Shown piece by piece: positions 10,157-57,556 of a stretch of 64,000 nucleotides of DNA. Position 1 is the first letter of the stretch. Every line of letters begins with the position of its first letter. The notes beneath the pieces were generated by a model. That model saw only the letters and a list, made by a program, of their open reading frames with translations, did not search any database and was not told where the DNA came from. The stretch spans positions 20,263 through 84,262 of the forward strand of contig JBFHKA010000002.1 in the NCBI GenBank assembly GCA_041595535.1, in the 5' to 3' direction. Position numbers and translations under genes: made by a program. Origin of the DNA: Sulfurimonas sp. GTDB taxonomy: Bacteria; Campylobacterota; Campylobacteria; Campylobacterales; Sulfurimonadaceae.

Positions 10157-10168
10157 GGTACATTATAT

Positions 10169-12340: not shown

Positions 12341-12349
12341 GAGTGACTT

Positions 12350-24845: not shown

Positions 24846-26384
24846 TTGTTTGATCTAAAAAAATATACATCAGCAAATATCAAAAACGATATTTTGTCTG
24901 GTTTAGTCGTTGCTGTAGCCCTAGTTCCTGAGGCTATTGCATTCAGTTTTATTGCAGGTGTAAGTCCAATTGTTGGACTTTACACTGCATTTCTTCTAGG
25001 TCTTATAACATCTTTAATTGGTGGTAAACAAGGAATGATTTCTGGTGCGACAGGAGCCATTGCTATAGTTTTGGTTGATCTAACACTTGAAGCAAATACT
25101 TTCCTTGGTGCACAGGGTTTAAGTGGCGAAGCAGTTGCTATGGGAGTTTTGCACTATATTCTTTTAGCAACAGTTATTGCTGGACTCATTCAGATTACTA
25201 TTGGTGCTTTAAAACTTGGTAAGTTTATCCGTCTTGTACCTACCCCTGCTATTCACGGTTTTGTAAATGGTCTTGCTATAGTCATTGCAACAGCTCAGTT
25301 TAAATTTTTTGAAGGTCAAAACTATATGATGTATATCTTAGTAGCTATAACTATGACTATTATGTATTTTCTTCCAAAAGTTACCAAAGCTGTTCCTGCT
25401 GGTTTAGTTGCTATCATTGTTTTAACTCTTAGTGTCTATTTTATACATATAGACACACTTCTTTTAAGTGGCTTAGATGATATGAGTAAATATGCTGGAG
25501 AACTCCCAACTTTTGGTATACCTGAGTATCTCTTTAGTTTAGATGCTATTATTTTTGTACTTCCTTATGCTGTTATAGTCGCACTTGTAGGAATTATAGA
25601 ATCACTCCTTACACTCTCAGTTTTAGATGAGCTTAGTAACACGCGTGGAAGCGCAAACAAAGAGTGTATTGCACAAGGAACTGGAAACGTTACGTGCGGA
25701 TTTTTTGGTGGTATGGCTGGCTGTGCGATGATTGGTCAAAGTATTATTAACTACACTTCTGGTGGTATTGGTCGTCTCTCCTCTTTTGTTGCGGCAGTTG
25801 GATTAATTGTTCTTGTTGTATCCATGAGTAGCGTTTTAAATGCCATTCCTGTGGCTGTTTTAGTAGGAATTATGTTTATGGTGAGTATCGGAACTTTTGA
25901 GTGGTCGAGCTTCTCGAGACTCAATAAAATGCCTCGTACGGATGCTTTTGTTATGGTAGCAGTTACTGTTATCACTGTATCTGAAGATTTAGCTAAAGCT
26001 GTAATTGCAGGTGTTATTATCTCTGCTCTTGCATTTGCGTGGAAGCATGCTCGTATCTGGGCTAAATCGCACATGGAAGCCGATGGTACAAAAGTATATG
26101 AGCTTGATGGGCCACTCTTTTTTGGAAGTGCAACTACATTTGCTGATAATTTTGATGTTTTAAATGACCCTCCAAAAGTGGTCATTGATTTTAAAAATGC
26201 TAGAGTTATGGATAGTAGTGGCGTTGAAGCAGTAGATGCTATTACAAAAAAATATGAAGATGCAGGGAAAAATCTTCTCTTACGTCACCTAAGTGCAGAT
26301 TGTAAAGCTATTCTCAAAAAAGCTGGACCTTACTGTGCCTACTCTGAAGATGATCCTACATATAAGGTGGCATTTAATTACTAA
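24846..26384 (+). CDS. SulP family inorganic anion transporter with STAS domain
   Basis: VALVPEAIAF, ISGATGA, ESLLT, GGMAGCAMIGQS; STAS GPLFFGS...VVIDF...DSSGVEA. Confidence 0.95.
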   Translation: MFDLKKYTSANIKNDILSGLVVAVALVPEAIAFSFIAGVSPIVGLYTAFLLGLITSLIGGKQGMISGATGAIAIVLVDLTLEANTFLGAQGLSGEAVAMGVLHYILLATVIAGLIQITIGALKLGKFIRLVPTPAIHGFVNGLAIVIATAQFKFFEGQNYMMYILVAITMTIMYFLPKVTKAVPAGLVAIIVLTLSVYFIHIDTLLLSGLDDMSKYAGELPTFGIPEYLFSLDAIIFVLPYAVIVALVGIIESLLTLSVLDELSNTRGSANKECIAQGTGNVTCGFFGGMAGCAMIGQSIINYTSGGIGRLSSFVAAVGLIVLVVSMSSVLNAIPVAVLVGIMFMVSIGTFEWSSFSRLNKMPRTDAFVMVAVTVITVSEDLAKAVIAGVIISALAFAWKHARIWAKSHMEADGTKVYELDGPLFFGSATTFADNFDVLNDPPKVVIDFKNARVMDSSGVEAVDAITKKYEDAGKNLLLRHLSADCKAILKKAGPYCAYSEDDPTYKVAFNY

Positions 26385-35100: not shown

Positions 35101-35173
35101 GAAGGTCAAAATATGTCTGAGTCAACAGTTTATCTTTTTGATTTAAAATTTTATTGATATTAAATGAGAGCAT
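32132..35173 (-). CDS. mutS: MutS family protein with C-terminal HNH endonuclease (MutS7-like)
   Basis: Mismatch-binding [11 protein letters not shown]; Walker A GINSSGKS; STFAVEM; GDEISHGTE; FATHLH; C-terminal CIIC...EDVHHI...[16 protein letters not shown]. Confidence 0.92.
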
Positions 35174-37183: not shown

Positions 37184-37398
37184 TACACAGATGCTCCCAT
37201 ACACACAAAACTATCGGCAGTCCATCGACGGTAGAGACAGTTATAACAAGAATCTTGTTCGGTAGATGTAACAAGCTCATCTTCATCATTATCAAGTTTA
37301 AACTGCATACATCTTCTTGTAGCTATTATTGCCCTTATATAATCTATTTTTCCATATTTAAATAAAGATGTACCACTTTTATTTTCAAACAATTTCAT
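37183..37398 (-). CDS. Small 4-Cys hypothetical protein (71 aa)
   Basis: C30, C51-x2-C54, C66; embedded in the operon with a 3-nt gap upstream and TAATG coupling downstream. Confidence 0.7.
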   Translation of the reverse strand: MKLFENKSGTSLFKYGKIDYIRAIIATRRCMQFKLDNDEDELVTSTEQDSCYNCLYRRWTADSFVCMGASV

Positions 37399-37401: not shown

Positions 37402-38133
37402 TTAATACTCTAATAAATATTCTTTGAGCAGAGGTACATAAAAACCTTCATACTCTTCAACAAGTAAGACAGATTTATGATTTAAGTAAACACCTTTTAA
37501 GTATTTATTCATAACTATCAAATAATTATCGCTTGCCATGTCTCCACCATTTACACGTACTTCATCAAATAAACCTAAACTTAAAAGTTCTGCAATAGAT
37601 ATCGTTTGTTGATGAAGTATAACTTTACCTTTTATACGTCCATCACTTCCGTGCATTCGTAGTGCAAGGCCAGCTAATGCTCCCACAACACCTGAACCTT
37701 CATTTCTTAACTCAGTTAAAAAAAGATTTTGCTCTTTTGCCATTAAGTAAGCACTCTCTTTAGTTAAGACTTTTTGTTTTGCATCCAGTCCATATTCAAT
37801 TAACTTCTCTTTGTCACATACATCCTCTTCAAACCCAATACAGATGCCTGGAGCGGATGAAGAAGCACTCCTCATCATCACATAGTCCATAACATACATT
37901 TTTATATCTTCAAGCTCATCTCGACTAAGCTCTGTTGTAAAACACATCGAACTATTGTGAGAGGTGTAGGGAATATCTTCGTGAAGAAGAAGTTGATGTC
38001 TCGTTATTGGTGTTGTTGGAGCATAATGCAATACTATATGCTCCCTAATCTCTTCACATATCTCACCCGTTGATGTGTAATAGCCTATCTCATCGGTATC
38101 ATCTATGGCTATATATGCCTTAAACTTTTGCAT
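37402..38133 (-). CDS. Stand-alone TiaS-like (DDTD motif) protein
   Basis: YIAIDDTD, TRHQLL...IPYTSHNSSMC, GSGVVGALAG; resembles the N-terminal modules of agmatidine synthetase TiaS without its OB and Zn-ribbon domains. Confidence 0.7.
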   Translation of the reverse strand: MQKFKAYIAIDDTDEIGYYTSTGEICEEIREHIVLHYAPTTPITRHQLLLHEDIPYTSHNSSMCFTTELSRDELEDIKMYVMDYVMMRSASSSAPGICIGFEEDVCDKEKLIEYGLDAKQKVLTKESAYLMAKEQNLFLTELRNEGSGVVGALAGLALRMHGSDGRIKGKVILHQQTISIAELLSLGLFDEVRVNGGDMASDNYLIVMNKYLKGVYLNHKSVLLVEEYEGFYVPLLKEYLLEY

Positions 38134-38136: not shown

Positions 38137-40107
38137 CTAAAATTTATACTCTAAAGAGGCAAAGAACTCTCTTCCTGCCATTGGATAAGCCATATCGTAG
38201 CGAACAAGCTCATCTGTAAGATTTTTTACACCTACTTCTGCAGTAAGCTCTTTCATTGGTTGGTAAATTGCTTTTACATCAAAAGTTGTAAAATCTGGAT
38301 TTGTTACATAGGTTCCATCTAACTTCTGTTCATAAGCACCGCTACGAAATTTCATATTTGCATAGAGAGAGAAACCTGCTCCAATCGCCTCTTTTGCAAA
38401 TACAAAGAGTTGCTGTTTTGGTACGTCTACAAGTTTGATGCTACTATCTTGCGTATTTTTGATAGATATATAAGCATAGTTTCCTCCTGCAGTTAAATTC
38501 TCACCTCTATAGTTAAGCTCTAACTCCCCTCCAATATGCTCAAAACTTCCAACATTTTGGTTTTGTTTGTAAGCTGGGTCTGGAGCATAAACAACACTCT
38601 GTATTGCATCATCAACTACTGTATAGTAAGCATTTAACCCGCCAGAAAATGCATTGTATTGTTTTTGATAACTTAACTCGTAGTGTGTTGCAATCTCATT
38701 TTCTAAGTCAACATTTGGAACAGATGAGTTGAGTTTACGAGAGTATCTATCTTTCATAGAAGGCATATATGTCTTTCTTGAGATACTCGCTCTTACTTTA
38801 GAACTATTGTCTGGCGAAAATATAAGGGCAGCTTGTGGAGAGAGTGAGCTCTCTGTAGCAAGACTCAACATATCTAAGTAGGCTGTATTTGTATCATAAA
38901 TTTTATCTGCTGTTCTTTGGTCATAACTTGCACCAACTAAAAGCTCAAACTGAGATGAGATTGTGTAACTATCTTCCAAACCTACAGAGATTGTATGGTC
39001 TTCATACTGTTCCGTCATAGTTTCTGCATCGCTCGTTTTACTTATATCATATCCTCTGTGAACATCTTTTTTATAATTTAAACTAGCTTTTAAGAAGTTA
39101 TCACCTAAGCCTAAGCCATACTCAAGACGAGTACCATAGCTGTAGTCATCATATCTACTCTTAAATGCCCAATTCTTACTTATAGTTGTAAACGTGTTGT
39201 TATCGTAAGAGTAGAGTGAATTTTTGCTTACGTCATAATACGCTAATGCTTTTATATAACTATTTTCAAAGTTCTTTTGACCTACGAGTGAGATAGTCTC
39301 TTTATCCCAATAAGGCCAATCCCAATTTTTATCTTTTGCATAGCTTGTATCAGTAACTGGAGGCTGCTGTTTTACAGCTTTTTGATTAAGGTAAGAGATT
39401 GCTATTTCACTCTTATCATTAGCCACATATCCAGCTTTAAAGCTTACTTTTTTATCTTCAGATTTAGAACGAAGTCTTTCTCCTTTTGGTTGAGTTGGTG
39501 TAGCTTCATATTTATCGCTCATTGTAAAATGGTCTTGTTTGCTATAAACAGCGCCAAGTTGTGCATAGAAATTTTTTTGGCGTGTACCAGCATTTATATT
39601 TTCTCTATGACTAGCCATTTTTCCATCTGAATCAAAAATAATTTGGGCTTTAATATTTCCCTCGAGCTCTTTAGTAGGTTTTTTAGAAACTATATTGACA
39701 ACACCGCCCATTGTATTACCTCCATATACAACAGATGAGTACCCTTTTGAGACATCTATCTCAGCTGTATCTGCTGTTAAAAAACGCCCATAGTCAAAGT
39801 TTCCATCATACGGAACATAGACAGGAATACCATCCATAAAAACACCAATTCTTTTTGAGTCAAATCCACGAATATAAATAGTTGACTCTCCACGTCCACC
39901 TTGTACGTCTTGATTTACACCGCTTACATTGTCTAATGCTTGCGCTACAGTCTCTGATGTATGAAGTGAAATCGCTTCTGCAGTTACATCCTCTTCAAAT
40001 ACTTTTATCTCTTGTGTTTGTGCTTGAACATTTACTTCCCCAAGTTCAAAAGAATCTGCTAAAAGCATACTCGTTGCAAGTGATAATAAAATAAATTTTT
40101 TGTTCAT
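38137..40107 (-). CDS. TonB-dependent receptor (PrrA-like)
   Basis: TonB box ELGEVNVQA; plug IRGFDSKRIGVFMDGIPVYVPYDG; GGNTMGGVVNIVSK; KNLTDE; C-terminal LEYKF. Confidence 0.95.
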   Translation of the reverse strand: MNKKFILLSLATSMLLADSFELGEVNVQAQTQEIKVFEEDVTAEAISLHTSETVAQALDNVSGVNQDVQGGRGESTIYIRGFDSKRIGVFMDGIPVYVPYDGNFDYGRFLTADTAEIDVSKGYSSVVYGGNTMGGVVNIVSKKPTKELEGNIKAQIIFDSDGKMASHRENINAGTRQKNFYAQLGAVYSKQDHFTMSDKYEATPTQPKGERLRSKSEDKKVSFKAGYVANDKSEIAISYLNQKAVKQQPPVTDTSYAKDKNWDWPYWDKETISLVGQKNFENSYIKALAYYDVSKNSLYSYDNNTFTTISKNWAFKSRYDDYSYGTRLEYGLGLGDNFLKASLNYKKDVHRGYDISKTSDAETMTEQYEDHTISVGLEDSYTISSQFELLVGASYDQRTADKIYDTNTAYLDMLSLATESSLSPQAALIFSPDNSSKVRASISRKTYMPSMKDRYSRKLNSSVPNVDLENEIATHYELSYQKQYNAFSGGLNAYYTVVDDAIQSVVYAPDPAYKQNQNVGSFEHIGGELELNYRGENLTAGGNYAYISIKNTQDSSIKLVDVPKQQLFVFAKEAIGAGFSLYANMKFRSGAYEQKLDGTYVTNPDFTTFDVKAIYQPMKELTAEVGVKNLTDELVRYDMAYPMAGREFFASLEYKF

Positions 40108-40116: not shown

Positions 40117-41085
40117 TTAAATTTTTGGTCTAATATCTTCGCTAAATATTTTTAGCATTTTTCTTGTCACTCTTGGATCTGTAGATGCAGGTTTGAGTAT
40201 GAGATGTAAATTTTTGATTCTCTTTTCCATCTCTAGAATTTTATCTATTGACTCTTCTACAGTTCCCAAAAGTGCTGCATTCATAAACTTCTTCGCATCA
40301 AAAAACTCATATCTCTGATTGAGCAAGAGTGTGTAATTCTCCTGATTAAATTCAGGTTGCGTTCCACCTGAGTTGAGTGAACGCATAGACTTCACAAAAT
40401 GGTCTGTAGCTATTACAGCAGCGTTATAAGCTTTTTCATAACTCTGAGCTACATAAAAGACTCGCATTAATACTATTTCTGGATCAAATCCTGCAATATT
40501 TTTATAAACCCTGCAAGCATTCTCACATTCCTCAATTGTTGCCCCCTGCGAAAACATAAGCCCAAACCCATTGTTTGCGGCAAACTCAATAGTCTCTTGT
40601 GTGGAGAATGTAGCCATATATATAGGTATCGTATTTTGTAATGGTTTTGGATGGAGTGCTTTATTATGAGAGAGTGCTCTATTTATAATGTGTACATTCT
40701 CAAAGAGTTCACTACGAAGTTCCTGTGGAGTTTTAGAAAAATACTCCATATCAAGAGTAAAACCACCTTTTGCAAAACCTGCATTTATCCTCCCGTTTGA
40801 GAGATTATCGAGTGTAGCTATCTCTTCAGCTAGACGTGTAGGATGATAAAAAGGTGCTAAAAAAGCAGCACTCCCAATGCGGATTTTACTTGTTTTTGCA
40901 GCAGTGTATGCCATCATTAAAGAAGGGTTTGGAATAACACTGAAAGAGTTAAAATGGTGCTCTGCGAACCAAACTTCATCAAACCCAAGTTCCTCTGCAT
41001 AACATGCCAAATCTATATCATTTAAAATCGTTACGTGCGAATTTGCATGAAAATTTTCTGTAAGTAAAAAAATACCTGTTTTCAT
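40117..41085 (-). CDS. LLM class (luciferase-like) flavin-dependent oxidoreductase
   Basis: AEELGFDEVWFAEHHF, AAKTSKIRIGS, HPTRLAEEIATLDNLSNGRINAGF. Confidence 0.92.
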   Translation of the reverse strand: MKTGIFLLTENFHANSHVTILNDIDLACYAEELGFDEVWFAEHHFNSFSVIPNPSLMMAYTAAKTSKIRIGSAAFLAPFYHPTRLAEEIATLDNLSNGRINAGFAKGGFTLDMEYFSKTPQELRSELFENVHIINRALSHNKALHPKPLQNTIPIYMATFSTQETIEFAANNGFGLMFSQGATIEECENACRVYKNIAGFDPEIVLMRVFYVAQSYEKAYNAAVIATDHFVKSMRSLNSGGTQPEFNQENYTLLLNQRYEFFDAKKFMNAALLGTVEESIDKILEMEKRIKNLHLILKPASTDPRVTRKMLKIFSEDIRPKI

Positions 41086-41684
41086 TAACTTTTATCTCTT
41101 AATAACTCTTTTTTTACTTCACTCCATGGATAACGTTTTATGGCATCCATATTTGTACGACGATTTATCATGCGTATTGAAAGTGGCTCTATCCAATTCC
41201 AAAACTCTTCAAGATGCTCATGAGGAAAATTTATGTCTTTGAGTGTTTTTTTATATATAGCTATCCAAATATCTCTGTCATTTTCATCTATTGGAACTTT
41301 GAAATGACGCATTCTTAGATGAGGTTCACCATGTTGTGAAGTAAAAATTTCCTCACCTCCAAGTGCCTCAACAAAAAAGTCTGCACTTTTATCAACAGCC
41401 ATTTTAAATGCCTCTTCATTAGCAGGGAAAAGTTTTCCTACCTTTGTTTTTTTAAGTAGTTCATGTTGATGCCAAACCATCTCACGAATTTTTTCTTCAC
41501 CGAGGGCTTTAAATATTTTGTTTGACGGAAATGGGACAGGTGGATAGATAATATCTATCATAGAGTCTACCGTTCTAATCTCATCCGCGCCAAAGCGAGG
41601 TCTATTTGGTTGCGCTTGCATACTACCTAGTTGTGTAAACGAAGTTATTTTGCCATTGTGGCAACTATTTTGATTTGTATCCAT
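41085..41684 (-). CDS. Truncated hemoglobin (group II-like) with N-terminal extension
   Basis: Start moved to ATG41684 (AAAGGA RBS); LGGEEIF...HGEPHLRMRH (F8 His), DRDIW (G8 Trp). Confidence 0.88.
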   Translation of the reverse strand: MDTNQNSCHNGKITSFTQLGSMQAQPNRPRFGADEIRTVDSMIDIIYPPVPFPSNKIFKALGEEKIREMVWHQHELLKKTKVGKLFPANEEAFKMAVDKSADFFVEALGGEEIFTSQHGEPHLRMRHFKVPIDENDRDIWIAIYKKTLKDINFPHEHLEEFWNWIEPLSIRMINRRTNMDAIKRYPWSEVKKELLRDKS

Positions 41685-41697
41685 AGTATTATTTCCT

Positions 41698-42345
41698 TTA
41701 TTTTGTAATGTAAACCCAAAATCCACTTTCATCATCAATAATAGTAAACTCACTTGGTCGAAGAGAATTAAAAATTATAGGTAAGGCTTCTCTTTCTGGT
41801 TTGATTCTATCTTTAAATGATTTTCTCCACTCTGGATTATTCTCTCTCATAGTTTGAACAATTTTTTCACGTAACTCTGCATTACCAAACCCTCCACCGA
41901 TGTATGCTTTACCACCGACTTTTAATACTCTGAGTATCTCACGGTATGCTTGATGCCAATCATCCCAGAACGGGGAAGAACCACGACTAATAACTAAGTC
42001 GATGGTGTCATTTTCAATCTCTATGTTATGAATATCTCCTTGCACGAAACCACTACGATGATATATGTGATCTTCTTTTGCATACTCTCTTGCAAATTCA
42101 AGCATCTCATCAGATTGATCAAAAAATGTCATATGCAAATCTGTAATTTTTGCCAATGATCTTCCTAAGGCTCCAGTACCACATCCAGCATCAAGGCATC
42201 TTCCACTTGTAATTTTTGTTTTTTCTATGATTTGTTCTGCTATCACAGGATAAATAGGAGCAAAAATCTCACGAACAATTTTGTCAAACCCTTGTGGGTT
42301 TGATCCGCCTCTATAGTGTTTTTTTATTTCCATATCTCTACTCAT
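41698..42345 (-). CDS. Class I SAM-dependent methyltransferase
   Basis: IFAPIYPVIAEQI, CLDAGCGTG, FDQSDEML, GDIHNI, DLVISRGS, RVLKVGG; start at 42345 gives proper RBS spacing. Confidence 0.9.
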   Translation of the reverse strand: MSRDMEIKKHYRGGSNPQGFDKIVREIFAPIYPVIAEQIIEKTKITSGRCLDAGCGTGALGRSLAKITDLHMTFFDQSDEMLEFAREYAKEDHIYHRSGFVQGDIHNIEIENDTIDLVISRGSSPFWDDWHQAYREILRVLKVGGKAYIGGGFGNAELREKIVQTMRENNPEWRKSFKDRIKPEREALPIIFNSLRPSEFTIIDDESGFWVYITK

Positions 42346-42359: not shown

Positions 42360-43403
42360 TTATAAGTTTACGTTAACACTCTCTAGTATCTCATCAAGAT
42401 TTTCTTGTGTTAAATCTACATTTAAAAAAAGTTTATAGAAACTTTTTGTCTCTTTTTGAATATCAATCTTGTACACTTCTGGGTAAAGGTTGTGCATGAC
42501 CCACTTTAGTCCTAAAATACGCATAAATGAAGGGGGTCTATCAAACCAATTAAATGGAGCTTTTGGAATTAAAAAAACTTTTTTATTTTTTACTGCTTTT
42601 ATTTCTTTCCATAATTTCATATCATAGATTTTGTCGTAAAACATCTTCTCTTGAACAAATATAACATCTGGATTGTATTGGAGTATAGTCTCCATAGATA
42701 ACTTTTCAAAACCTTTATGGCTTGAAGTATGGCATCTATGAATATCTACATCACCTGCTAATTTAAGAAGCTCGACATGAATGGAATCATCACACTCTGT
42801 ACTTAGTCCATCTGTTCCCTCAGCATAATACACAGTAGGCCTCTTCTCTTGTGGTACTTTTGCAACGGCATTTTTTACTTCATCAAAAGTATTTTTTGTA
42901 TACTCAGAGAGTCTATCACCACGCTCTTGTTTATTTAAAGCAACTCCTAAGAATTTAAAAATACCAACATAATCTAGAATGGATTCATCACAAGCATATA
43001 CAAATGGCGTACTGAGTATGTGTAATCTCTCTTGCTCTTTTTGTGTAAACTCATTGATGTGTGACCACATAAGAATTAAATCAGGGCGTTTTGAAAGCAA
43101 AACCTCAAGGTTTGCTGATTGTCCAGCTCCAAAAACTCTTCCTATAACAGGGAGTGTCTGCATTCTTTTGTCCAAAAAAGGATAATACTTACTGTCAATG
43201 TTAAATATCCACCCAACAAGAACAGAAGGATCCATGGCATAAAGAGCATAAGAACCATACGGTGAGGGAGCATAAACTTTTTTTGGTTGTTCTGGCACAA
43301 CTACCTTGCGTCCTAACATATCTACAATTTCTCTGGCTTGGAGAGAAGCTAAGAATAAAGAGCTAAGTAACAAGGTAAAAATAAATTTTTGAAGCTGTTT
43401 CAT
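42360..43403 (-). CDS. ABC transporter periplasmic binding protein (FhuD/BtuF-like class III)
   Basis: IVDMLGRKVVVP, NLEVLLSKRPDLI, ETILQYNPDVI, AVKNKKVF, FDRPPS. Confidence 0.92.
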   Translation of the reverse strand: MKQLQKFIFTLLLSSLFLASLQAREIVDMLGRKVVVPEQPKKVYAPSPYGSYALYAMDPSVLVGWIFNIDSKYYPFLDKRMQTLPVIGRVFGAGQSANLEVLLSKRPDLILMWSHINEFTQKEQERLHILSTPFVYACDESILDYVGIFKFLGVALNKQERGDRLSEYTKNTFDEVKNAVAKVPQEKRPTVYYAEGTDGLSTECDDSIHVELLKLAGDVDIHRCHTSSHKGFEKLSMETILQYNPDVIFVQEKMFYDKIYDMKLWKEIKAVKNKKVFLIPKAPFNWFDRPPSFMRILGLKWVMHNLYPEVYKIDIQKETKSFYKLFLNVDLTQENLDEILESVNVNL

Positions 43404-43412: not shown

Positions 43413-45467
43413 CTAAAAATTCATACTAATTTCGACACCAAGTGTTCTTCCACGGTCGTAGTAGTATCCAGTTGTATATCTTGTCGCATATTTATCATTT
43501 GTTAAGTTTCTTCCATAAATTTTCCCAGTAATGATGTTGCTTTTCCATTTAAAATCTTTTGCTGCATTTGCATCAATTCTTGTATAATTTCCAAGGGTAA
43601 CACCCGATGATGTTCCCATGGCACTTGAAGAACTAGAGTAAGCATCAACTCTTTTTGCAGAGGCATTAAAACGGTAATCTTCCCAAGTGTGACTTATGAG
43701 TGCGGAGTAGCTATTTTCAGGTGTGGATACACCTACACTATCAGAAGATGTAGTACTATTAGATGTCTCATTAAGAAGCATACGTGTCCATGAAAACTTA
43801 TAAGTTGTGCTTCTTTTAATAGTTCCATTGATACTTAACTCAACACCTTGTCTATGCGAATTTTGTTCTGTATAGTAGTAGTACTCATTTCCTTGGTCAT
43901 CTGTATATGTTTTATCATCAATGGCAGTTTTTTCATTCTCTATATCAACATCAAAGTAAGTTATCATAGGCACAAAAACTTTGTCAAAGTCTGCTTTTAA
44001 ACCTACTTCCCAACGATTTTGCTTTTCAGCATGAAGTGTTTCATTGTTTTCTGTCATCAGGTCAAAATCACCTGATACTCCTTCATCTCCATAGTAATAA
44101 CGTGCACTTAAACTATATGTATTTGTCATATTCCATAGTGCACCAACTGCAATAACATTAGCGGGAGACAAATCTATATTATTGTTTGCATTTGGTTTTG
44201 ATAATGCCTCATTTTTTGCTTTTGTTGAATCTTTTATATGTTTATAATCAAGTCTATACCCTGCATCAAGAACAAGCGATTCATCAAAAAGAGATTGCTC
44301 TAATGAAATTGCATACCCCATCACAGAAGTGTCATATTTGTTATATCCTTTTGAGAGATTTGGTCCAAAACCTTTACTGTGTGTCATCTGTCCACCAAGG
44401 TTAATAAGTGTATTTCCAAAACGTGCTTTATGTCGTAAACTATATGTCTGTGTTGATTCTGTATACTCTTTTTGTGCATGAGAAGTGTTTGCAAAGTTAT
44501 CATTAATCTCTGTTTGTTCATACATTATTGAAGATGCTGAGAAGAGTGTAACTTGATTTTCACTCCAAATAATATTTCCATCCATAGAGAGTACAGTAGT
44601 TATAATAGGGTCATAAAACCACTTTGCATTATCAACAGTTCCGTCTGTTTTTACTCCCCTTTGCATCTCAAATCTACCTCTATCTTTATAAGCCATAGTA
44701 TTGATTGTTATAGGACCATAGTTCAAACCTGCGTTTATCATTCCAGCTTGGGCACTACTTCCATCAAACCAATCTTCTCTACTTGGTCGGTTATAACGTG
44801 AGACCATCCCTCCAACATATCCATTGAGAGAATTAGCACTTCCAAATGTTGCTCCCATATAGAGATCTTCTCCATCAGCTCCTGGTTGTGCATCTGCTTG
44901 CTCATAATAGGCTCTTAGCATCCCTCCAGTTTTTTTAGGATGTTTTGTTCTAATGATGATATAACCTATTGATGTTCCGCCACCACTATTAGATGCTCCA
45001 ATATCTATAGCAGGTGCTATCGTTATTGCTGTAGATGTACGAACAATCTGTATCTCCTCAATAGCTACAAGAGGAAGTGTTGTAAGAATACGATCGCTAG
45101 TTGAAGGTAAAATAGCTCCATCTAAAATATAAGTAATACTTCCTCCTCCTCGCATATTGATAAAATAAGGGTGTTTACGTCCTTGATATGTTACGTCCAT
45201 TCCTATTGCTTTATTCATCAAGTCAAAAAAGTCTTTTGCTTGGTATGCTTCTATCTCTTTTTCATCCATAACCTCAGTTCCAAACTGTGCACTCTTTTCT
45301 ATCTGATAAAGATTTGTAGGACTTGATAGTTCAAGATCTTCCCTTGGTGCGACTGTTGTTTCATTTACGTTAATCTCTTCTAAATTTTTTGTCTCCTCTG
45401 CTGACAAATTAGAAGCTACTGACACTATTAGCAAAAGTGCTAAATATCCTAAAACCTTTTTTTTCAT
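43413..45467 (-). CDS. TonB-dependent receptor
   Basis: Signal peptide, LEEINV box, plug NMRGGGSITYILDG, GRNLTNDKY, C-terminal EISMNF. Confidence 0.92.
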   Translation of the reverse strand: MKKKVLGYLALLLIVSVASNLSAEETKNLEEINVNETTVAPREDLELSSPTNLYQIEKSAQFGTEVMDEKEIEAYQAKDFFDLMNKAIGMDVTYQGRKHPYFINMRGGGSITYILDGAILPSTSDRILTTLPLVAIEEIQIVRTSTAITIAPAIDIGASNSGGGTSIGYIIIRTKHPKKTGGMLRAYYEQADAQPGADGEDLYMGATFGSANSLNGYVGGMVSRYNRPSREDWFDGSSAQAGMINAGLNYGPITINTMAYKDRGRFEMQRGVKTDGTVDNAKWFYDPIITTVLSMDGNIIWSENQVTLFSASSIMYEQTEINDNFANTSHAQKEYTESTQTYSLRHKARFGNTLINLGGQMTHSKGFGPNLSKGYNKYDTSVMGYAISLEQSLFDESLVLDAGYRLDYKHIKDSTKAKNEALSKPNANNNIDLSPANVIAVGALWNMTNTYSLSARYYYGDEGVSGDFDLMTENNETLHAEKQNRWEVGLKADFDKVFVPMITYFDVDIENEKTAIDDKTYTDDQGNEYYYYTEQNSHRQGVELSINGTIKRSTTYKFSWTRMLLNETSNSTTSSDSVGVSTPENSYSALISHTWEDYRFNASAKRVDAYSSSSSAMGTSSGVTLGNYTRIDANAAKDFKWKSNIITGKIYGRNLTNDKYATRYTTGYYYDRGRTLGVEISMNF

Positions 45468-45546: not shown

Positions 45547-46521
45547 TTATTGCTCTAAATAATTAAAGAAAATCTTCTCAAAGTTTTGTAACTCTTTCTT
45601 AGAAGATAGTGGCAACAACTCAGGGTAAAACGTATGAATCAGCCAACGTATTCCCATTAAACGCATAAAAGATGGTGGTCTTGTTATGTAATTAAATGGA
45701 ACGGATGGAACCAAATAAACTTGTTTACTCTTCACCGCACGTAACCCAGTAAACTTTGGATTTTCATAAATTCCATCATAAAAACTCTTCTCCATTACAA
45801 CAAGAACATCAGGATCACTTAAAACAATGTTTTCAAATGAAATTTTTTCCATTCCATAGTTTGAACTCATTTTACAATCCAGTGCATTTTTAGCACCGCT
45901 ATATGTAAAAGGTTCTAAATGAAAAGAGCCACTACATTCACTACTCATTCCATCTACACCCTCCGCAAAATAGTAACGTACTGGTTGCATCTTAGAGAGT
46001 TTACTTTGTAGAGAATCTATAAGTGTAAGTGTCTCTTGCGTGTATGCTATAAGCTCTTTAGCTCGCGTTGTATCACCTGTAAGTTTTGCATAGAGTTCAA
46101 ACTGTGTAATCAAATCACTTATTGAATCATTTCTGATTAATAACACAGGAATGTTTAACATCTCAAATTTTTTGAGCACTTTTTCATACCCATTCATGCG
46201 TCCCCACATCAAGATAACATCTGGTTTTGAAGCTGCTAAAAGTTCAAAGTTTGGAGTTTTGCCTTGTCCAAAAAAACCACCAGCAACAGGCTTCTCGTAT
46301 GCAACTCCAGCATAGGGCTTTTGTTCGGGAGTAAATGGTGTATTTAGAGCACTGAGTAGTGCTGGATTAAATGCCAATACACTCATACTTATAGGGGGTG
46401 AAGCCGCATAAATTTTTGTAACTTTATCTGGAACTTCAACACTTCTTCCATAATCATCTACAATGACTTTTGCCTGCGTTTGCGTTAAAAAGAAAAATAA
46501 TACCAACAGAAATATTTTCAT
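45547..46521 (-). CDS. ABC transporter periplasmic binding protein (class III)
   Basis: IVDDYGRSVEVP, PNFELLAASKPDVI, SFENIVLSDPDVL, AVKSKQVY, ITRPPS. Confidence 0.92.
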   Translation of the reverse strand: MKIFLLVLFFFLTQTQAKVIVDDYGRSVEVPDKVTKIYAASPPISMSVLAFNPALLSALNTPFTPEQKPYAGVAYEKPVAGGFFGQGKTPNFELLAASKPDVILMWGRMNGYEKVLKKFEMLNIPVLLIRNDSISDLITQFELYAKLTGDTTRAKELIAYTQETLTLIDSLQSKLSKMQPVRYYFAEGVDGMSSECSGSFHLEPFTYSGAKNALDCKMSSNYGMEKISFENIVLSDPDVLVVMEKSFYDGIYENPKFTGLRAVKSKQVYLVPSVPFNYITRPPSFMRLMGIRWLIHTFYPELLPLSSKKELQNFEKIFFNYLEQ

Positions 46522-47306
46522 TAGACTCTACCTTTTAGTACTGGAATACACCACTGCTTAGAGTTGTGCTCAATAATATTTGCATTGATGCCATAAATAC
46601 CTTGCATCATATCTGACGTTATAACTTCATCACTTGTTCCATTTGCGATGATTGTTCCCTCATCCATTACCACAACACGACTAGAAACTAAAATAGCATG
46701 GTCTGGATAATGCGTAGTCTTTAAAAAGGTGTAACCCTTTGCACTCAATTCATTAATCATCTCTAAAAGACGTATTTGATTGCCATAATCAAGACCTGAG
46801 ACTGGCTCATCCATAATAAAAGTATTTGTCTCCTGTGTGAGTGCACGTGCAAGTAAAACCATCTGCTTTTGTCCACCACTAAGTTCTCCAAAAGCTCTCT
46901 TTGCAAGCGACTCTATACCAATAGTCTTAAGTGCTTCATAAGCAAGTTCAAAATCCTTTTTGGAAGGAGAAGAAAAGAGACCAAGCTTAAATACACGCCC
47001 CATTACAACCATATCTAAAACACTATAGTTAAAAGGGACATTATGATATTGTGGAATATATGCAATATGTGCAGCTATCTCTTTTTGGGAGTAATCTTTT
47101 AAGTTTTTATCTCCAAGTTTTATCTCCCCTTCTCCTTTTAAAAGACCTAATATAATACGAATCATTGTACTTTTTCCACAGCCATTTGCACCGAGTAAAC
47201 TTACTACTTCACCCTTGTGCAAATCAAAATCAACTCCACGGAGTACATCTCTTTTTGGGTAAGAAAAATGAAGATTTTTTACCGAGATAATTGGTTTTAA
47301 TTCCAT
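46521..47306 (-). CDS. ABC transporter ATP-binding protein (FepC/FecE-like)
   Basis: True start ATG47306 (MELKPII); GANGCGKS, LSGGQKQ, IMDEP, TTHYPDH. Confidence 0.93.
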   Translation of the reverse strand: MELKPIISVKNLHFSYPKRDVLRGVDFDLHKGEVVSLLGANGCGKSTMIRIILGLLKGEGEIKLGDKNLKDYSQKEIAAHIAYIPQYHNVPFNYSVLDMVVMGRVFKLGLFSSPSKKDFELAYEALKTIGIESLAKRAFGELSGGQKQMVLLARALTQETNTFIMDEPVSGLDYGNQIRLLEMINELSAKGYTFLKTTHYPDHAILVSSRVVVMDEGTIIANGTSDEVITSDMMQGIYGINANIIEHNSKQWCIPVLKGRV

Positions 47307-48325
47307 GCTGCCCTCGCATTTTTGAGTACAATTATAAAAATTGGAATCCCTATTATAGATGTGAGTATTCCTATTGGTATCTCGACACTCAAAGCAAGTC
47401 TTGACACAGAATCTGCTAGAAGTAAAAAAAGTGCACCTAAAATTGCAGAAAGCGGTATCAAAGTACGGTGTGAGGGTCCTATTGCCATACGTATAATGTG
47501 CGGTATAATAAGACCAATCCAACCAATAATACCTGCCATAACAACAGAGAGTGAACTTGCAATAGTCGCTAGAAGAATTGCTATAATTCTTACTGCTTTT
47601 ACATTGATACCAAGTGCTTTTGCCTCTTCATCTCCAAGACTTAAAATATCAAAATATTTGCTCATTAAAATCATAGTAGCAATACTTAGAATCATAGGTA
47701 TACTAATAAGTAAAACGCCATTTAACTCAGCCATAGAGAGACTTCCCATCAACCAGTAAACAATTGCAGGAAGTGTGCTGTATGGATCTGCCACATATTT
47801 TATAATAGATAAAAAAGATGTAAAAAGCGAACCACTAATAACGCCACCAAGGACAAGCATCACACTCGAACGAGAGTTTGTAACCATAGAACCGATAGCA
47901 ACAGAGAGTGCAACTGCAATAAAACCAAAACTAAAAGCTAAGATTTGTACTACAAACCACTGCTCACTTATAAGCATTCCAAGTGCAGCTCCAAAAGAAG
48001 CCCCAGCCAAAACACCTAAAATACCCGGAGATACAAGTGGATTTACAAACATTGCTTGAAATACAGCTCCAGAAGTAGCCAAAGAAGCTCCAATTAATAT
48101 CGCCAACAAAACTCTAGGAAGACGAATCTCTAAGATGATATTGTCTAAGAGATCAAACTGAGATACATCTCCAGCTGTACTCCCTAAAATCTTATACTCT
48201 ATATAATTCATAAATGTACTAAAGTCTATGGGGTATTGCCCCCATAAAAGCGATAGAGTTGCAAAAATGAGTAAGATGAGAAAGGAAATACCTATCCATC
48301 TGCTACTACTACTTATATATTGCAT
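47297..48325 (-). CDS. FecCD/BtuC family ABC permease
   Basis: IRLPRVLLA, QAMFVNPLVSPGILGVLAGA, LSLGDEEAKALG, IGWIGLIIPHI, EIPIGILTS. Confidence 0.96.
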   Translation of the reverse strand: MQYISSSSRWIGISFLILLIFATLSLLWGQYPIDFSTFMNYIEYKILGSTAGDVSQFDLLDNIILEIRLPRVLLAILIGASLATSGAVFQAMFVNPLVSPGILGVLAGASFGAALGMLISEQWFVVQILAFSFGFIAVALSVAIGSMVTNSRSSVMLVLGGVISGSLFTSFLSIIKYVADPYSTLPAIVYWLMGSLSMAELNGVLLISIPMILSIATMILMSKYFDILSLGDEEAKALGINVKAVRIIAILLATIASSLSVVMAGIIGWIGLIIPHIIRMAIGPSHRTLIPLSAILGALFLLLADSVSRLALSVEIPIGILTSIIGIPIFIIVLKNARAAWN

Positions 48326-48333: not shown

Positions 48334-50568
48334 TTAGTACTTTAAATTTAGACTTGCATATACACCAAATGGGGCACCTGTTTGGTACGTACTTGAAGTT
48401 CCATTTGCTGCGAGTGCATTATCTGCTGAGATAATAGTTGCTATGTATTTTTCGTTTGTTAAGTTTGTAGCTGTCACCCTAAAGAGTGAATCTTTTGAAC
48501 CAAAAAACGTTTTTAATTTATACGAGACGTCTAAATCTACTAAAGTATATGCATCTATTTTCTGTGTATTTGCAACATCCCCATATCTACTTGAGCTATA
48601 TCTAGTACTCGGCGTAAATGTCCATCTATCTACATAGTATGAGAGTGCCCCTTTTGCCATAAACTCTGGTGCATCAGGAAGCTGATTTCCTTTTATGGAT
48701 GTAGAGCTTGTTGGTGAAGACTTAAAGTCTTGTGTAAAACTATACTTGTTGTAAGAGAGTCCTAAAAGAAATTCTAAACTTTCAGTTATAGCTCCATTTG
48801 CTGCAAACTCTGCTCCATATCCTAAAGCTTCTCCAACATTCGCTGGATAATTCACACCATACGTTGGGTCATAAATATTTGCTTGTTTATTATTTACAAA
48901 TGATACAAAGAAACTTGGATTGAGTGTAATCGCACCTACATCTGTTTTAAATCCTAAATCAATATTATCGGATGTTTCAAGCTCTAATTCATCCCATAAA
49001 GTTTGAAGCTTAACACCTTTAGCTACAAAGGCTGCTCTGTTTGAAGCATACGTTGGAAAGAGATTTACATCAAATCCATACGTACGAGAGTAATCTAAGT
49101 AGATAGAAGAACTTGTATCTAAATCATACGCTAAGTACAAAGAAGGTAAAAAAGTATTAAAAGTTCTTGCGTCTACACTTGCCCAGCTGTCTAGTGTTGA
49201 AGTTGCTATTGCAACATCATGATCTTGACTTGTTGCAGCAGTTGTACCTATGTAGCTTTTAATAGATCCAATAGTAAAGGTTTGGTACTGTAATCCTGCA
49301 GCATAGTGAAAACTGCTCATATCACCACTAAGTTCCACAAAAGGAGCCTGCAATACATGATAATCTGTATCTGCTAAAATTCCATATCCTGCGTATTGTA
49401 AATTTCCACTTGCATTTACTTTGTATTTTTTTTGATCATTTGGAGGTCCAGGAGGGAGTTGTTTATGGTACCAGTACCCGATTTTACTTTTTAACTCTTG
49501 TGAAAATGTATGTTCATACGCTGCCACACCACCATATAAATCATGTTCCATATGCCAATTTATGACAACATTTTTTGCAGTATTAGAGAACCAATAATCC
49601 CCTTCATCTTTTTTATAGTAAGGCTTTAACGTGACTGTATCGTTTGAAGTAGGTTTAAAGGCTATGTCAGCCATAAACGCTGTAGTGTCAAAATTTTGTT
49701 TGTTCCAATCATAGTAGTTTGTGTCATTTGCACTTGTAGGTTTTGTTGATGCATAATCTTTATCAAAATATCTTCCAAGGTCTGTAGCTTCTGCATAACT
49801 CAAACTTGCATAGTTATGGTGCTTGTCTTTATTTCTTACTGCATAGATGTCTGCTTTAAAACTATTGTTAGGTTCATAAGAGAGTCCAACCATTCCATTT
49901 GCTCTTTTAAGATCTCCCTCGCCTTTTGTTTTATCACTCTGAATGTATGAGAGAGAACCAAAAGCACTAAAATCACTAACTTTTCCACTATCAACACGTA
50001 CAAATGTTTTTCTAAATGCATCACTACCAACAGACTGAGAGATATTTATGCCAAGTTTTTTCTTTGGTTTTAAAACATTCATATCGATTTTTCCAATTAA
50101 ACTTGAAAAACCTAAGTTTTTATCGACACCTATGTACCCTTTATGTAAATCAATAGAAGCGACATTTTCCATATCAAGCATCTGTTTTCCACCACCAGGA
50201 TTACTTGATATTGGCATACCATTTATCATGTACACTCCACCAGGACCAGACTGACTTTTTCCACGAATACGTATTGGGTCATGGTACGAAGGTTCATTAG
50301 AACCAGCCTGATCGACTGGAGTAAAATTCACCGATGGTGAAAACTGAATAACCGTATACGGGTTCATATTTGCCTGTGTACTTAGTGTAGCTATACTCTT
50401 TTGTGTATAACTTTGGCTATTTTGTTTTGCGGATGTGTTGCTATCACTTACTAGCATCTGTCCATCATCTTGCATAGTTGAATTGACTACGATTTTTTCT
50501 ACACTCAGTGGTGTAGCCATCAGTGCAGTTGCTGCGACTAAAGATAACATTGTAAACGTAACTCTCAT
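48334..50568 (-). CDS. TonB-dependent receptor
   Basis: VEKIVV box; plug IRIRG...YMINGMPIS; GNQLPDAP; ATNLTNEKY; C-terminal SLNLKY. Confidence 0.93.
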   Translation of the reverse strand: MRVTFTMLSLVAATALMATPLSVEKIVVNSTMQDDGQMLVSDSNTSAKQNSQSYTQKSIATLSTQANMNPYTVIQFSPSVNFTPVDQAGSNEPSYHDPIRIRGKSQSGPGGVYMINGMPISSNPGGGKQMLDMENVASIDLHKGYIGVDKNLGFSSLIGKIDMNVLKPKKKLGINISQSVGSDAFRKTFVRVDSGKVSDFSAFGSLSYIQSDKTKGEGDLKRANGMVGLSYEPNNSFKADIYAVRNKDKHHNYASLSYAEATDLGRYFDKDYASTKPTSANDTNYYDWNKQNFDTTAFMADIAFKPTSNDTVTLKPYYKKDEGDYWFSNTAKNVVINWHMEHDLYGGVAAYEHTFSQELKSKIGYWYHKQLPPGPPNDQKKYKVNASGNLQYAGYGILADTDYHVLQAPFVELSGDMSSFHYAAGLQYQTFTIGSIKSYIGTTAATSQDHDVAIATSTLDSWASVDARTFNTFLPSLYLAYDLDTSSSIYLDYSRTYGFDVNLFPTYASNRAAFVAKGVKLQTLWDELELETSDNIDLGFKTDVGAITLNPSFFVSFVNNKQANIYDPTYGVNYPANVGEALGYGAEFAANGAITESLEFLLGLSYNKYSFTQDFKSSPTSSTSIKGNQLPDAPEFMAKGALSYYVDRWTFTPSTRYSSSRYGDVANTQKIDAYTLVDLDVSYKLKTFFGSKDSLFRVTATNLTNEKYIATIISADNALAANGTSSTYQTGAPFGVYASLNLKY

Positions 50569-51587
50569 TACTCATCTCCTAAAATTGTTTTAACTTGCTT
50601 GTCTGTTATTTTTACATTAAAAAAGAGTGCATAAAACTCTTTTATCTGTTTGTTCAGGTCTATTTTGTACTCATTTGGATGAAAGATATTTGCTAACCAT
50701 TGAATCCCAATAATTCTCATAAAAGATGGTGGTCTATCAATCCAGTTAAAGGGTGCATTGGGTACAAGATATACTTTTTTGTTTTTTACTGCACGTAGAT
50801 GGGCAAAAAGGTCATCATAAAGAATCTGATTGTATGTAAAACTATTTTGAGCAATGATGACATCTGGGTCATACGTCAAAAGCGTTTCAAAGTTAATCTT
50901 CTCTAAACCTAGAAGCTGACTCTGTTGGCACTTATGTACGTTCTCGCCACCTGCAAAATTGAGTGCTTCGATGTGAAAAGATTGGTCACACTCTGTAGAT
51001 AAACCATCAACGCCTTCTGCGTAGTAGTAACGTACAGGCTTTGTTTTTGCGAGAGATATTTGTATCTCTTCTATGATATTTTTAGCATAAGAAGACAAAA
51101 GTAAACCTCTTCCATGCTCATTCATAGCATTTGCCGCAACACTAATTGCTTTTGGCATATCTTCTATTTTTCTAAAAGGAATGGAAAGTGTTGGCAAGTG
51201 TGTTTTTTGTATAGATTTATTTACAGTAGCCATCATCATGTCATCTTCCCAAACAAAAATTAAGTCTGGTTTTTTTGCCATAAGGATTTCAAGATTTATA
51301 TTTTTTCCTCCCCCATGAAAAGAGCCAATAACGGGAAGTGAAAGAAATCGTTTATCCAAAAACTCTGGGGTTGCAAAATTATTACTATTTTTTGCACTAA
51401 AGTTTAAACCAATAAGTTTATCTGGATTGATTGCATATATAAGATACGTCATTGGTGGGGAAGAACCAAAGACAGTCTCAACTTTATCAGGCACAGTGAC
51501 CTCATCTGCATAAAAATTCTGGATGCTTCTTGCATCAAGATTGCTTAGGAGGACGAATATGACAAGTAAATGAAGTAAAAAATTCAT
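50568..51587 (-). CDS. ABC transporter periplasmic binding protein (class III)
   Basis: INLEILMAKKPDLI, NFETLLTYDPDVI, AVKNKKVY, IDRPPS. Confidence 0.92.
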   Translation of the reverse strand: MNFLLHLLVIFVLLSNLDARSIQNFYADEVTVPDKVETVFGSSPPMTYLIYAINPDKLIGLNFSAKNSNNFATPEFLDKRFLSLPVIGSFHGGGKNINLEILMAKKPDLIFVWEDDMMMATVNKSIQKTHLPTLSIPFRKIEDMPKAISVAANAMNEHGRGLLLSSYAKNIIEEIQISLAKTKPVRYYYAEGVDGLSTECDQSFHIEALNFAGGENVHKCQQSQLLGLEKINFETLLTYDPDVIIAQNSFTYNQILYDDLFAHLRAVKNKKVYLVPNAPFNWIDRPPSFMRIIGIQWLANIFHPNEYKIDLNKQIKEFYALFFNVKITDKQVKTILGDE

Positions 51588-51598: not shown

Positions 51599-52366
51599 TT
51601 AGGATTGTTGTAGTGAAAAAGAGATGGGAATCTTCAAATCAACTTTTTTACTCAATTGTGGGTACTCTCCATCTAGCAATGAAACTGTCTGAAGAGCTCT
51701 TTTATCTAGTGCAGAACTACCGCTACTCTCAAGTATACATACGCTCTCTACATGTCCATCTGCAGAGAGCGAGAATGAAATAAGTACAACACCCTCTAAT
51801 TTTAGTTTTCTAGCAATTGCTGGATAACGTAGTGAGTTTTGTATTAAGGTTCTTATGCGTGCTAATTCTTCATTACTTACCTCTGTGGTCCGTGTATGCG
51901 TCTGAGGTAAGTTAGAATCAGCCAAAGGAGAATTAACGCTAGGAGCTTCTGGTTGTGCAATTTCTTGTTGCGTAACGGGCTCTGCTTTTTGTATAGGAGG
52001 CGTAAACGCCTCAGAAGGAACAACAGGTTCTGGTTGCACTTTCTCAGGAGTCTTTTCTTTTGGTACTTCTTTTACTACTTTTTTTTGAGGTTTAACTACT
52101 TTTTTTGTTTTCTTTACTTTTTTTACAGGTTTTGGAGTAGGTTTGGTAGGCTCTTTGAGCGCTTGCATTGTAGGTGCATAACTCGCTAAAGAGACAACTA
52201 TAGTTTTACTCTCTTGTGGCATATGAACAAACTCATTACTTGCATAATGAATGAGCGTTGCAAAAAGAGCAGCGTGAATAAAAAGAGAGGCAAAAAATGC
52301 CTTTGTTTTCAAAAAAGAGTCACTGTGTATCTTTTTAGATACAACGATACTACCTAAAGAATTCAT
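51599..52366 (-). CDS. tonB: Energy transducer TonB
   Basis: TM SLFIHAAL (SxxxH), Lys/Pro-rich linker, YPAIARKLKLEGVVLISF, SSGSSALDKRAL; start ATG52366 6 nt after GAGGGG. Confidence 0.92.
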   Translation of the reverse strand: MNSLGSIVVSKKIHSDSFLKTKAFFASLFIHAALFATLIHYASNEFVHMPQESKTIVVSLASYAPTMQALKEPTKPTPKPVKKVKKTKKVVKPQKKVVKEVPKEKTPEKVQPEPVVPSEAFTPPIQKAEPVTQQEIAQPEAPSVNSPLADSNLPQTHTRTTEVSNEELARIRTLIQNSLRYPAIARKLKLEGVVLISFSLSADGHVESVCILESSGSSALDKRALQTVSLLDGEYPQLSKKVDLKIPISFSLQQS

Positions 52367-52402
52367 CTTCACCCCTCAAAATTTCTACTTTTAAGCAAAA
52401 GT

Positions 52403-57484: not shown

Positions 57485-57547
57485 TTTTACTCTTCCTTTT
57501 CTATAATCTTTGACTGCATTAAAAAACAGCCTAATTTCATTGGTTTG

Positions 57548-57556
57548 ATTATAGCA
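57548..57556 (-). promoter_or_regulatory. Extended -10 for the pilin gene
   Basis: TGCTATAAT about 64 nt upstream of the ATG. Confidence 0.7.

Follow-up and report, generated by a model that had tools for sequence, protein, structure and literature searches.

Three described systems come closest to the locus considered here. TiaS, the archaeal tRNA agmatidine synthetase, phosphorylates the C2 carbonyl oxygen of C34 of tRNA(Ile2) with ATP, and a nucleophile then displaces it. It belongs to organisms without TilS, which require agmatidine to decode AUA. Thr18 of TiaS is autophosphorylated, which gave the Thr18-Cyt34 kinase domain (TCKD) its name. MolBC-A of Haemophilus influenzae (HI1470/HI1471/HI1472) is a type II ATP-binding cassette (ABC) importer for molybdate/tungstate, with MolA as its molybdate/tungstate-binding protein. 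The third is the tungsten-cofactor (Tuco) regulon of Eubacterium limosum (fetABC1/fetABC2). In that species, Tuco riboswitches head two 'Fe ABC-type' operons, and fetABC1 is upregulated at tungsten limitation (PMC11725836).

We analyzed a 64,000-nucleotide stretch of Sulfurimonas sp. DNA (GCA_041595535.1, contig JBFHKA010000002.1, positions 20,263 to 84,262), hereafter the window. On its minus strand it encodes a TCKD-like protein of 243 residues, followed immediately by a 71-residue protein with four invariant cysteines (Cys4), which we call CysMini. The three systems are the closest known, and none of them accounts for a TCKD-like enzyme with a Cys4 partner. We judge the chances to be slightly better than even that the two proteins are the cytoplasmic, ATP-using processing and hand-off arm of a tungsten/molybdenum acquisition system. 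A known catalytic fold is thus found with a new partner and in a new context, and probably acts on a new class of substrate.

A predicted TiaS kinase domain in a bacterial protein

The initial annotation had described an open reading frame (ORF) with three motifs, without giving its strand. The ORF is there, and all three motifs are present in its minus-strand translation: IAIDDTD at residues 8-14, RHQLLLHEDIPYTSHN at residues 45-60 and GVVGALAG at residues 148-155. When 26 homologs are aligned, from Campylobacterota, Firmicutes, Pasteurellaceae and other groups, the invariant core consists of D11, D12, T13, D14, T22, G23, R45, H46, Q47, Y56-S61, M63, F65, G151, G155 and R159, with further invariant positions at G115, K119, G162, D164, G165, G169 and K213. 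The three motifs are not due to chance; they belong to the invariant core of a large uncharacterised family. A word-indexed search returned 2,349 homologs at E<=1e-3, and an exhaustive profile search of 1.84 billion representatives yielded 1,023 clusters at 50% identity, 727 of them at E<=1e-10. Database labels for these homologs are solely 'hypothetical protein' or, wrongly, 'ThiG'. The curated family libraries hold no model for this family or for CysMini. The window protein has no Pfam match even at E<=10; individually, 17 of the 26 family members match PF22641 (TiaS_TCKD; best E 1.9e-7).

The relationship to TiaS was examined by structure and by profile. AlphaFold2 produced a confident model (pLDDT 92.4, pTM 0.89), and its top nine Foldseek matches in the Protein Data Bank (PDB) are all TiaS, with 3amt at E 1.2e-9 and a root-mean-square deviation (rmsd) of 2.6 Å over 158 columns. 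The result was repeated with the model of a fusion relative. The family profile matches PDB sequences of TiaS at E 2.9e-7 to 2.4e-5 (3u02 at 2.9e-7; 3au7, 3amt and 4rvz at about 1e-5), aligning residues 3-160 with TiaS 1-153. In the hidden Markov model alignment, DDTD (D11-D14) falls on TiaS D8-D11 and the invariant T22 on TiaS T18. Judged by profile and predicted structure, residues 1-160 are a true TiaS TCKD domain, as the initial annotation had claimed. Shared with TiaS (A. fulgidus 3AMT/3AMU/3AU7/4RVZ/5XOB; P. furiosus 3U02) are the fold of this domain, the DDTD motif, the Thr18 equivalent, and the IPY..T..N..F and G-x-G-x-I-G-A-L-A blocks. Because the fold and the catalytic motif blocks are conserved, the protein probably binds ATP/Mg as TiaS does and, by analogy, activates an oxygen atom of its substrate.

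Beyond the TCKD the two proteins differ. Low-rmsd Foldseek alignments end at about 155-163 columns and longer ones have an rmsd of 7-10 Å, and thus the superposition on TiaS proposed earlier holds for the TCKD and finds nothing for the FLD that follows it. The protein ends at residue 243 with neither an OB fold nor a C-terminal Zn ribbon, and the absence of these tRNA-binding domains had been recognized correctly. In their place is another C-terminal domain, the last 80 residues being mostly beta strands in the model; Foldseek against the PDB matched nothing to it, as the alignments covered the TCKD only. The family also has invariants of its own: R45-H46-Q47, S58-H59, S61-S62-M63-C64, K119, R159, D164 and K213. 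Unlike TiaS, the protein is bacterial and occurs with a Cys4 partner in a tungsten/molybdenum-uptake context rather than one of translation, in a genome that carries TilS (171.2 bits against a cutoff of 93.6). With no FLD, OB or Zn-ribbon domain, and in a genome that already carries TilS, the TCKD-like protein is not a TiaS. The presence of TilS likewise makes the non-tRNA substrate suggested by the initial annotation a sensible one, while its proposal that the substrate might be amidinated has no support.

The only curated family model that the window protein touches is TIGR03280, methanogenesis marker protein 11 (E 2e-8; 33.7 bits against a cutoff of 255.8). The match is confined to a TCKD-like domain at positions 134-283 of the 292-position profile; nothing in the window protein corresponds to the first 133 positions of the marker. 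All methanogens depend on a tungsten/molybdenum formylmethanofuran dehydrogenase; we treat the resemblance as a lead only. The same model gives matches below cutoff in Bacteroides thetaiotaomicron, which was included as a control genome. This genetically tractable gut bacterium may hold a TCKD-like relative that could be used experimentally. Literature searches on bacterial TiaS-like proteins and methanogenesis marker 11 gave nothing relevant, and no description of the bacterial family was found.

A constant four-cysteine partner

To follow the gene across genomes, 80 loci were taken from one-genome-per-species contigs and added to the window, giving 81 loci (30 from Campylobacterota, namely the window and 29 others, and 51 from elsewhere), and ORFs within 9 kb of the TCKD-like gene were clustered. 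CysMini, which in the window starts 3 nt past the TCKD-like stop codon and had been overlooked in the initial annotation, is the constant neighbor. Among 78 usable loci, 57 have a small ORF with the CysMini motif directly downstream of the TCKD-like gene, 12 have it on the same strand at a distance of up to about 2 kb, and two have it fused, for a total of about 71. In 37 of the 145 best representative clusters that were fetched, DDTD and the Cys motif share one polypeptide. CysMini is therefore an obligate or constant partner of the TCKD-like protein. Here the 'stand-alone' label of the initial annotation is only partly right: the protein is a homolog of the TiaS kinase module by itself, but its working partner is a Cys4 module, whether encoded by a gene of its own or fused.

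Four cysteines (C30, C51, C54 and C66) are invariant in CysMini, as are F33, D36, E41, R57 and W59. Neither the single sequence nor its profile has a relative in Pfam, NCBIfam or the PDB sequences. A natural fusion of 295 residues (locus L070) was modeled with good confidence (pLDDT 91.1; 82-89 for the Cys module), and in a Foldseek search of the PDB its Cys module matched no solved fold, the TiaS Zn ribbon included. MAFFT aligned the CysMini N-terminus (window positions 37330-37398; ..F-K-Y-G-K..Y.K-A..A) to a helix-loop-helix of the TCKD-like protein (residues 108-134; LIEYG..AK...K..AY.MAK). This likeness could be chance or interface mimicry.

A Cys4 module next to a TiaS catalytic domain raises the question of RNA. 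An RNA- or tRNA-modifying enzyme like TiaS, with the miniprotein replacing the zinc ribbon, would draw on the homology of the TCKD, the intact catalytic motifs and the loose parallel between the separate Cys4 module and the ribbon. We nevertheless consider it extremely improbable: neither an FLD nor an OB domain is present, the Cys module resembles nothing in the PDB, the genome's TilS is well above its cutoff, and the gene context across phyla is transport and molybdenum/tungsten (Mo/W), never translation.

Redox proteins recur beside or fused to the TCKD-Cys unit (P0160, P0194, L057, L083 and L064), and a monooxygenase is encoded in the window. P0160 (826 aa) and P0194 (922 aa) each join the TCKD-like domain and the Cys module to a DAO-type FAD oxidoreductase and a BFD-like [2Fe-2S] domain within one chain. 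Clostridium magnum (L057, 11062-13886) has the same DAO/BFD protein and a Pyr_redox_2/DUF1667 protein encoded separately after the pair. Because of this recurrence, thiol/disulfide or ligand redox chemistry is suggested to accompany the step. In Syntrophomonas and relatives (L038, L043, L048, L054, L061 and L062; about 10000-12400), two to three tandem TCKD-like paralogs precede a single CysMini, an arrangement that suggests a hetero-oligomer or substrate diversification.

These arrangements bear on whether the TCKD-like protein could be a regulatory kinase or sensor, one that responds to cytoplasmic tungsten or molybdenum and gates import by phosphorylating itself, CysMini or the transporter. 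In its favor, the family never varies the threonine that aligns with the TiaS autophosphorylation site, a Cys4 protein could serve to sense metal, and the regulation of transport by MolBC-A is stated to be unexplained (PMC4031551, PMC4245157). However, the tandem paralogs and the fusions to FAD/Fe-S oxidoreductases fit a metabolic enzyme better, and some pairs have no transporter gene beside them, such as the one that follows an aldehyde dehydrogenase in L066. We give this explanation very little credence.

Importers, riboswitches and Mo/W genes around the pair

Because two unrelated importer architectures accompany the pair, it is tied to the cargo and not to the mechanism of the transporter. 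An ABC ATPase occurs in 70 of the 81 loci, a Peripla_BP_2 binding protein in 68 and a FecCD permease in 59. TonB-dependent receptors are found in 30 (Gram-negatives), and Big_5 cell-surface proteins in 36 (Firmicutes; one, in a Bacillus, with a sortase). In eight loci (L057-L060, L066-L068 and L081) an importer resembling the energy-coupling factor (ECF) type, made up of CbiQ, a double ATPase and a 189-aa membrane protein, stands in for the FecCD system or beside it. Of the 30 Campylobacterota loci, 11 have MoeA, Mop/TOBE, ModB/TupB-like, ModA/TupA-like or ModD genes at a distance of 9 kb or less, and so do several other loci.

Regulation in the relatives is informative. Whole-Rfam scanning of loci returned one recurrent family, RF01055, the molybdenum/tungsten-cofactor riboswitch, and a covariance model built from its first five matches was used to scan loci. 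There are 29 copies in 23 of the 51 non-Campylobacterota loci (873,522 bases; 33 per Mb) and none in the 29 Campylobacterota loci other than the window. Upstream of the TCKD-like gene lie 24 of the 29, distributed over 20 of the 23 riboswitch-bearing loci, and for 23 of these 24 an unbroken co-directional gene run leads to it. All eight re-tested copies pass the Rfam gathering score, and 13 do altogether (59-88 bits against 36). It is in Firmicutes and Deltaproteobacteria that relatives of the window operon are headed by these aptamers. The P3 hairpin is deleted in two Rfam alignments, and all 29 copies are 123-133 nt long and span a P3-less model end to end. By sequence we assign them to the P3-less, or tungsten-cofactor, class. 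This class tracks organisms with tungsten cofactor (17/19; Regulski et al. 2008, PMC2408646), and the same criterion is also used in the E. limosum study, where five RF01055 riboswitches are counted in the whole genome (PMC11725836).

Several loci hold more than one aptamer. Three P3-less RF01055 aptamers lie within 550 nt in L035 (2267-2811), one of them on the opposite strand and facing a ModA/ModB-like pair; two are in tandem in L025 (2787-3101); and three are spread over L043 (5785-17809). These recall the triple arrangement of S. wolfei (PMC2408646). In L043 another riboswitch also precedes a molybdopterin oxidoreductase and an XdhC-like protein, the latter label coming from reading the sequence and not from a family scan. 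Other operons under Tuco-riboswitch control contain a MOT1-family molybdate transporter right after CysMini (L074, 11034-12239), an HdrD-like CCG/4Fe-4S membrane protein (L083, 7595-9664), and a RACo-like ATP-dependent reductive activator with a 2Fe-2S domain (L064, 8280-10214). L064, from a member of the Eubacteriaceae, runs riboswitch, Big_5, FecCD, ATPase, MolA-like binding protein, TCKD-like, CysMini, RACo-like activator, and its layout is the same as that of the published Tuco-controlled ABC operons. The E. limosum study reads those transporters as iron importers, and the part consulted discusses no TCKD-like gene (PMC11725836).

The binding proteins connect these operons to MolBC-A, which shares with the window a FecCD-type permease, an ABC ATPase and a Peripla_BP_2 binding protein. 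For the binding protein adjoining the TCKD-like genes of L043, the best solved relative is MolA (HI_1472; E 1.7e-29). One window binding protein (the MolA-like one in Table 1) matches MolA at E 3.1e-15, ranked third after 4pag and 4ovk, two unnamed 'Periplasmic binding protein' entries, and matches the binding proteins of riboswitch-controlled TCKD operons at E 1e-32 to 1e-34. A Glaesserella relative has ModD adjoining, as mod/mol clusters do. The window system differs in having three receptors and three binding proteins, with a ligand that is predicted from homology, and two published descriptions of MolBC-A name no TCKD-like enzyme, Cys4 protein, TonB-dependent receptors or methyltransferases among its parts (PMC4031551, PMC4245157).

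Current annotations would make the pair an accessory of iron-chelate or heme uptake, for example by freeing iron from a siderophore or tetrapyrrole. Siderophores, heme or B12 are the usual cargo of the FecCD, Peripla_BP_2 and TonB-dependent receptor families, the window operon includes a globin-like protein, and the best NCBIfam matches of the receptor are to heme/hemoglobin and siderophore receptor subfamilies, far below cutoff. The E. limosum paper also reports higher cellular iron along with its iron-transporter reading of the Tuco-controlled FecCD-type operons (PMC11725836). Yet no family-level match is reached at any curated cutoff, the regulation observed is that of tungsten/molybdenum cofactor and not of iron, MolA is the closest solved binding protein in L043, Mo/W genes are recurrent neighbors, and no cobalamin riboswitch occurs in the window or in the 18 loci scanned with all of Rfam. 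We find an iron or heme role quite improbable. A corrinoid or heme cargo was also considered, FecCD-type and ECF-type importers both being known for B12, and was rejected as the leading idea because the same scans returned RF01055 only.

It is harder to separate metal uptake from salvage of an organic cofactor. Here a pterin-type compound (molybdopterin, a fragment of molybdenum cofactor (Moco) or Tuco, or a precursor) or a tungsten/molybdenum-organic chelate would be imported, the enzyme would phosphorylate, pyrophosphorylate or adenylylate the organic part, and redox enzymes would process it. Tuco riboswitch control fits this equally well as it fits metal uptake, and TonB-dependent receptors, Big_5 capture proteins and ECF-type importers are typical of vitamin and cofactor uptake. 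The DAO FAD oxidoreductase and BFD [2Fe-2S] fusions, and the DAO/BFD, Pyr_redox_2/DUF1667, HdrD-like and RACo-like proteins that share the operons, could supply the processing steps. Among the weaker Foldseek matches after TiaS is HPPK (E about 6e-3), a pterin pyrophosphokinase that likewise cleaves ATP to AMP; however, this is a weak match to a widespread fold, the ferredoxin-like one. Once outside a protein, Moco-type pterins are very labile. Of the Moco-synthesis genes, MoeA was the one searched for, and the genome has two copies; oxyanion transport genes (MOT1, ModB/TupB-like) are co-located with the pair in relatives. The weak binding of molybdate by MolA also speaks for salvage (PMC4031551), although the best solved relative of the binding protein remains a demonstrated molybdate/tungstate binder. 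On this evidence we regard salvage as unlikely. The initial annotation had suggested that the enzyme may act on an imported small molecule; in the light of the riboswitches, the MolA-like proteins and the Mo/W neighbors, the cargo is not a generic one, the family being tied to the acquisition of tungsten/molybdenum.

The Sulfurimonas operon and its proposed role

The transport genes of the window form a closely spaced run on the minus strand (Table 1), in keeping with the uptake operon of the initial annotation, and the pair sits close to the 3' end of this run. Gaps of 3 nt separate the TCKD-like gene from the TonB-dependent receptor gene before it and from CysMini after it. A scan of the window for promoter and terminator consensus sequences gave fewer matches than shuffled sequence and was uninformative on the operon boundaries. 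If the ATPase ORF began at the TTG assigned to it mechanically, about 225 nt of it would lie within the FecCD permease gene; the true start is therefore probably further downstream.

Table 1. Genes of the uptake locus in the window, listed from the 3' end of the run to its first gene
Feature	Position	Strand	Remarks
Class I S-adenosylmethionine (SAM)-dependent methyltransferase, 277 aa	35855..36688	-	In 17/81 loci; all checked are Gram-negative (Campylobacterota, Glaesserella)
Membrane protein, 166 aa	36704..37204	-	Beside the pair in 14 loci; all checked are Campylobacterota
CysMini, Cys4 miniprotein, 71 aa	37183..37398	-	Motif C-x2-F-x2-D-x-DEDE...SCYNCxYRRW-x3-SF-x-C
TCKD-like protein, 243 aa	37402..38133	-	Residues 1-160, predicted TiaS Thr18-Cyt34-kinase-domain fold with DDTD and T22; 163-243 beta-rich
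TonB-dependent outer-membrane receptor (Plug + beta-barrel)	38137..40107	-	Immediately upstream of the TCKD-like gene
Luciferase-like (flavin-dependent) monooxygenase	40117..41085	-	Lineage-specific accessory, 10 loci
Bacterial-globin-like protein	41085..41753	-	Lineage-specific accessory, 4 loci
Second class I SAM methyltransferase, 218 aa	41698..42354	-	6 loci
Peripla_BP_2 substrate-binding protein	42360..43403	-	MolA-like group
Second TonB-dependent receptor	43413..45467	-	
Second Peripla_BP_2 substrate-binding protein	45547..46521	-	
ABC transporter ATPase	46521..47522	-	PF00005 E 2.6e-30; TTG start as listed
FecCD-family (type II ABC importer) permease	47297..48325	-	PF01032 E 7.9e-81
Third TonB-dependent receptor	48334..50568	-	
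Third Peripla_BP_2 substrate-binding protein	50568..51587	-	
TonB energy transducer	51599..52372	-	First gene of the co-directional run

Other features of the window surround the locus. Directly downstream is a MutS-family protein of 1,013 aa (32132-35173, minus strand) with MutS domains I, III and V (Pfam), whose C-terminus carries an HNH-like motif, CIICG...HHISQ, as read from the sequence, making it a MutS-HNH fusion. A SulP/STAS-family anion permease (24846-26384, plus strand) lies 11 kb from the locus, with no established link to the operon; SulP and MOT1 relatives can carry molybdate. A tRNA gene (57667-57753, minus strand; Rfam RF00005, 55 bits) overlaps the 5' end of a mechanically called ORF (56927-57712).

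A number of observations weigh against assigning tungsten or molybdenum to this particular operon. Unlike the E. limosum operons, the window has no RF01055 riboswitch by Rfam scan, and it contains no Mo/W marker gene, so the assignment depends on the homology of the entire module to operons at other loci. Its binding proteins are just 27-28% identical to the riboswitch-controlled ones. MolA binds molybdate with low affinity (PMC4031551), and because of this the true ligand of the MolBC-A-like transporter class may be something else. Elsewhere in the genome, on other contigs, are a mod-like cluster, two MoeA genes, Mop and molybdopterin oxidoreductases; because that cluster is a conventional one, the uptake system is not the genome's only Mo/W route. 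The genome has no AOR-type tungstoenzyme, and for this reason the metal here may be molybdenum rather than tungsten. Three receptors, three binding proteins, two methyltransferases, a monooxygenase and a globin-like protein are extras whose role our proposal does not explain. Lastly, surface-capture proteins, TonB-dependent receptors and ECF alternatives fit bulky organic cofactors better than a small oxyanion.

With these points counted, tungsten/molybdenum processing is still the explanation we lean toward, if narrowly, and the following scheme would account for it. TonB-dependent receptors and a MolBC-A-like type II ABC importer would bring in the cargo, which may be tungstate, molybdate or a complexed metal and could be the same in the window operon as in its relatives. 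By analogy with TiaS, activation by the TCKD-like enzyme would cost ATP and would fall on an oxo ligand of the tungstate or molybdate or, where the metal is complexed, on a donor atom. The thiolates of the Cys4 partner would then take the metal and pass it to MoeA and molybdopterin cofactor assembly. Such activation is proposed as the most economical hypothesis because the catalytic motifs are intact, the invariant His, Cys, Lys and Arg residues suit an anion, and the partner offers four thiolates. A more specific form, at present speculative and on balance unlikely, makes the unit a 'tungstate/molybdate kinase plus metallochaperone', again by analogy: the oxo ligand would become a phospho- or adenylyl-ester and be displaced by the partner's thiolates and later by the pterin dithiolene.

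In anaerobes, gut and syntrophic bacteria included, the metabolism of formate, aldehydes, nitrate and sulfur runs on tungsten and molybdenum enzymes. To our knowledge, the textbook route from oxyanion to cofactor has neither an ATP-dependent metal-activation step nor a thiol-based carrier. A family of more than 1,000 clusters, locked to a Cys4 partner and to two unrelated types of importer and associated with tungsten-cofactor riboswitches, suggests that an ATP-dependent metal step exists. If so, many 'iron ABC transporter' operons would be re-annotated, including ones like the Tuco-controlled operons of Eubacterium limosum, and the weak binding of molybdate by MolA-type proteins may be explained. 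The cargo would also be the first non-RNA substrate for the TiaS kinase fold. Should the unit be a kinase plus metallochaperone, it would supply a step missing from current schemes of Moco/Tuco assembly. Such a system could explain how anaerobes acquire tungsten and select for it.

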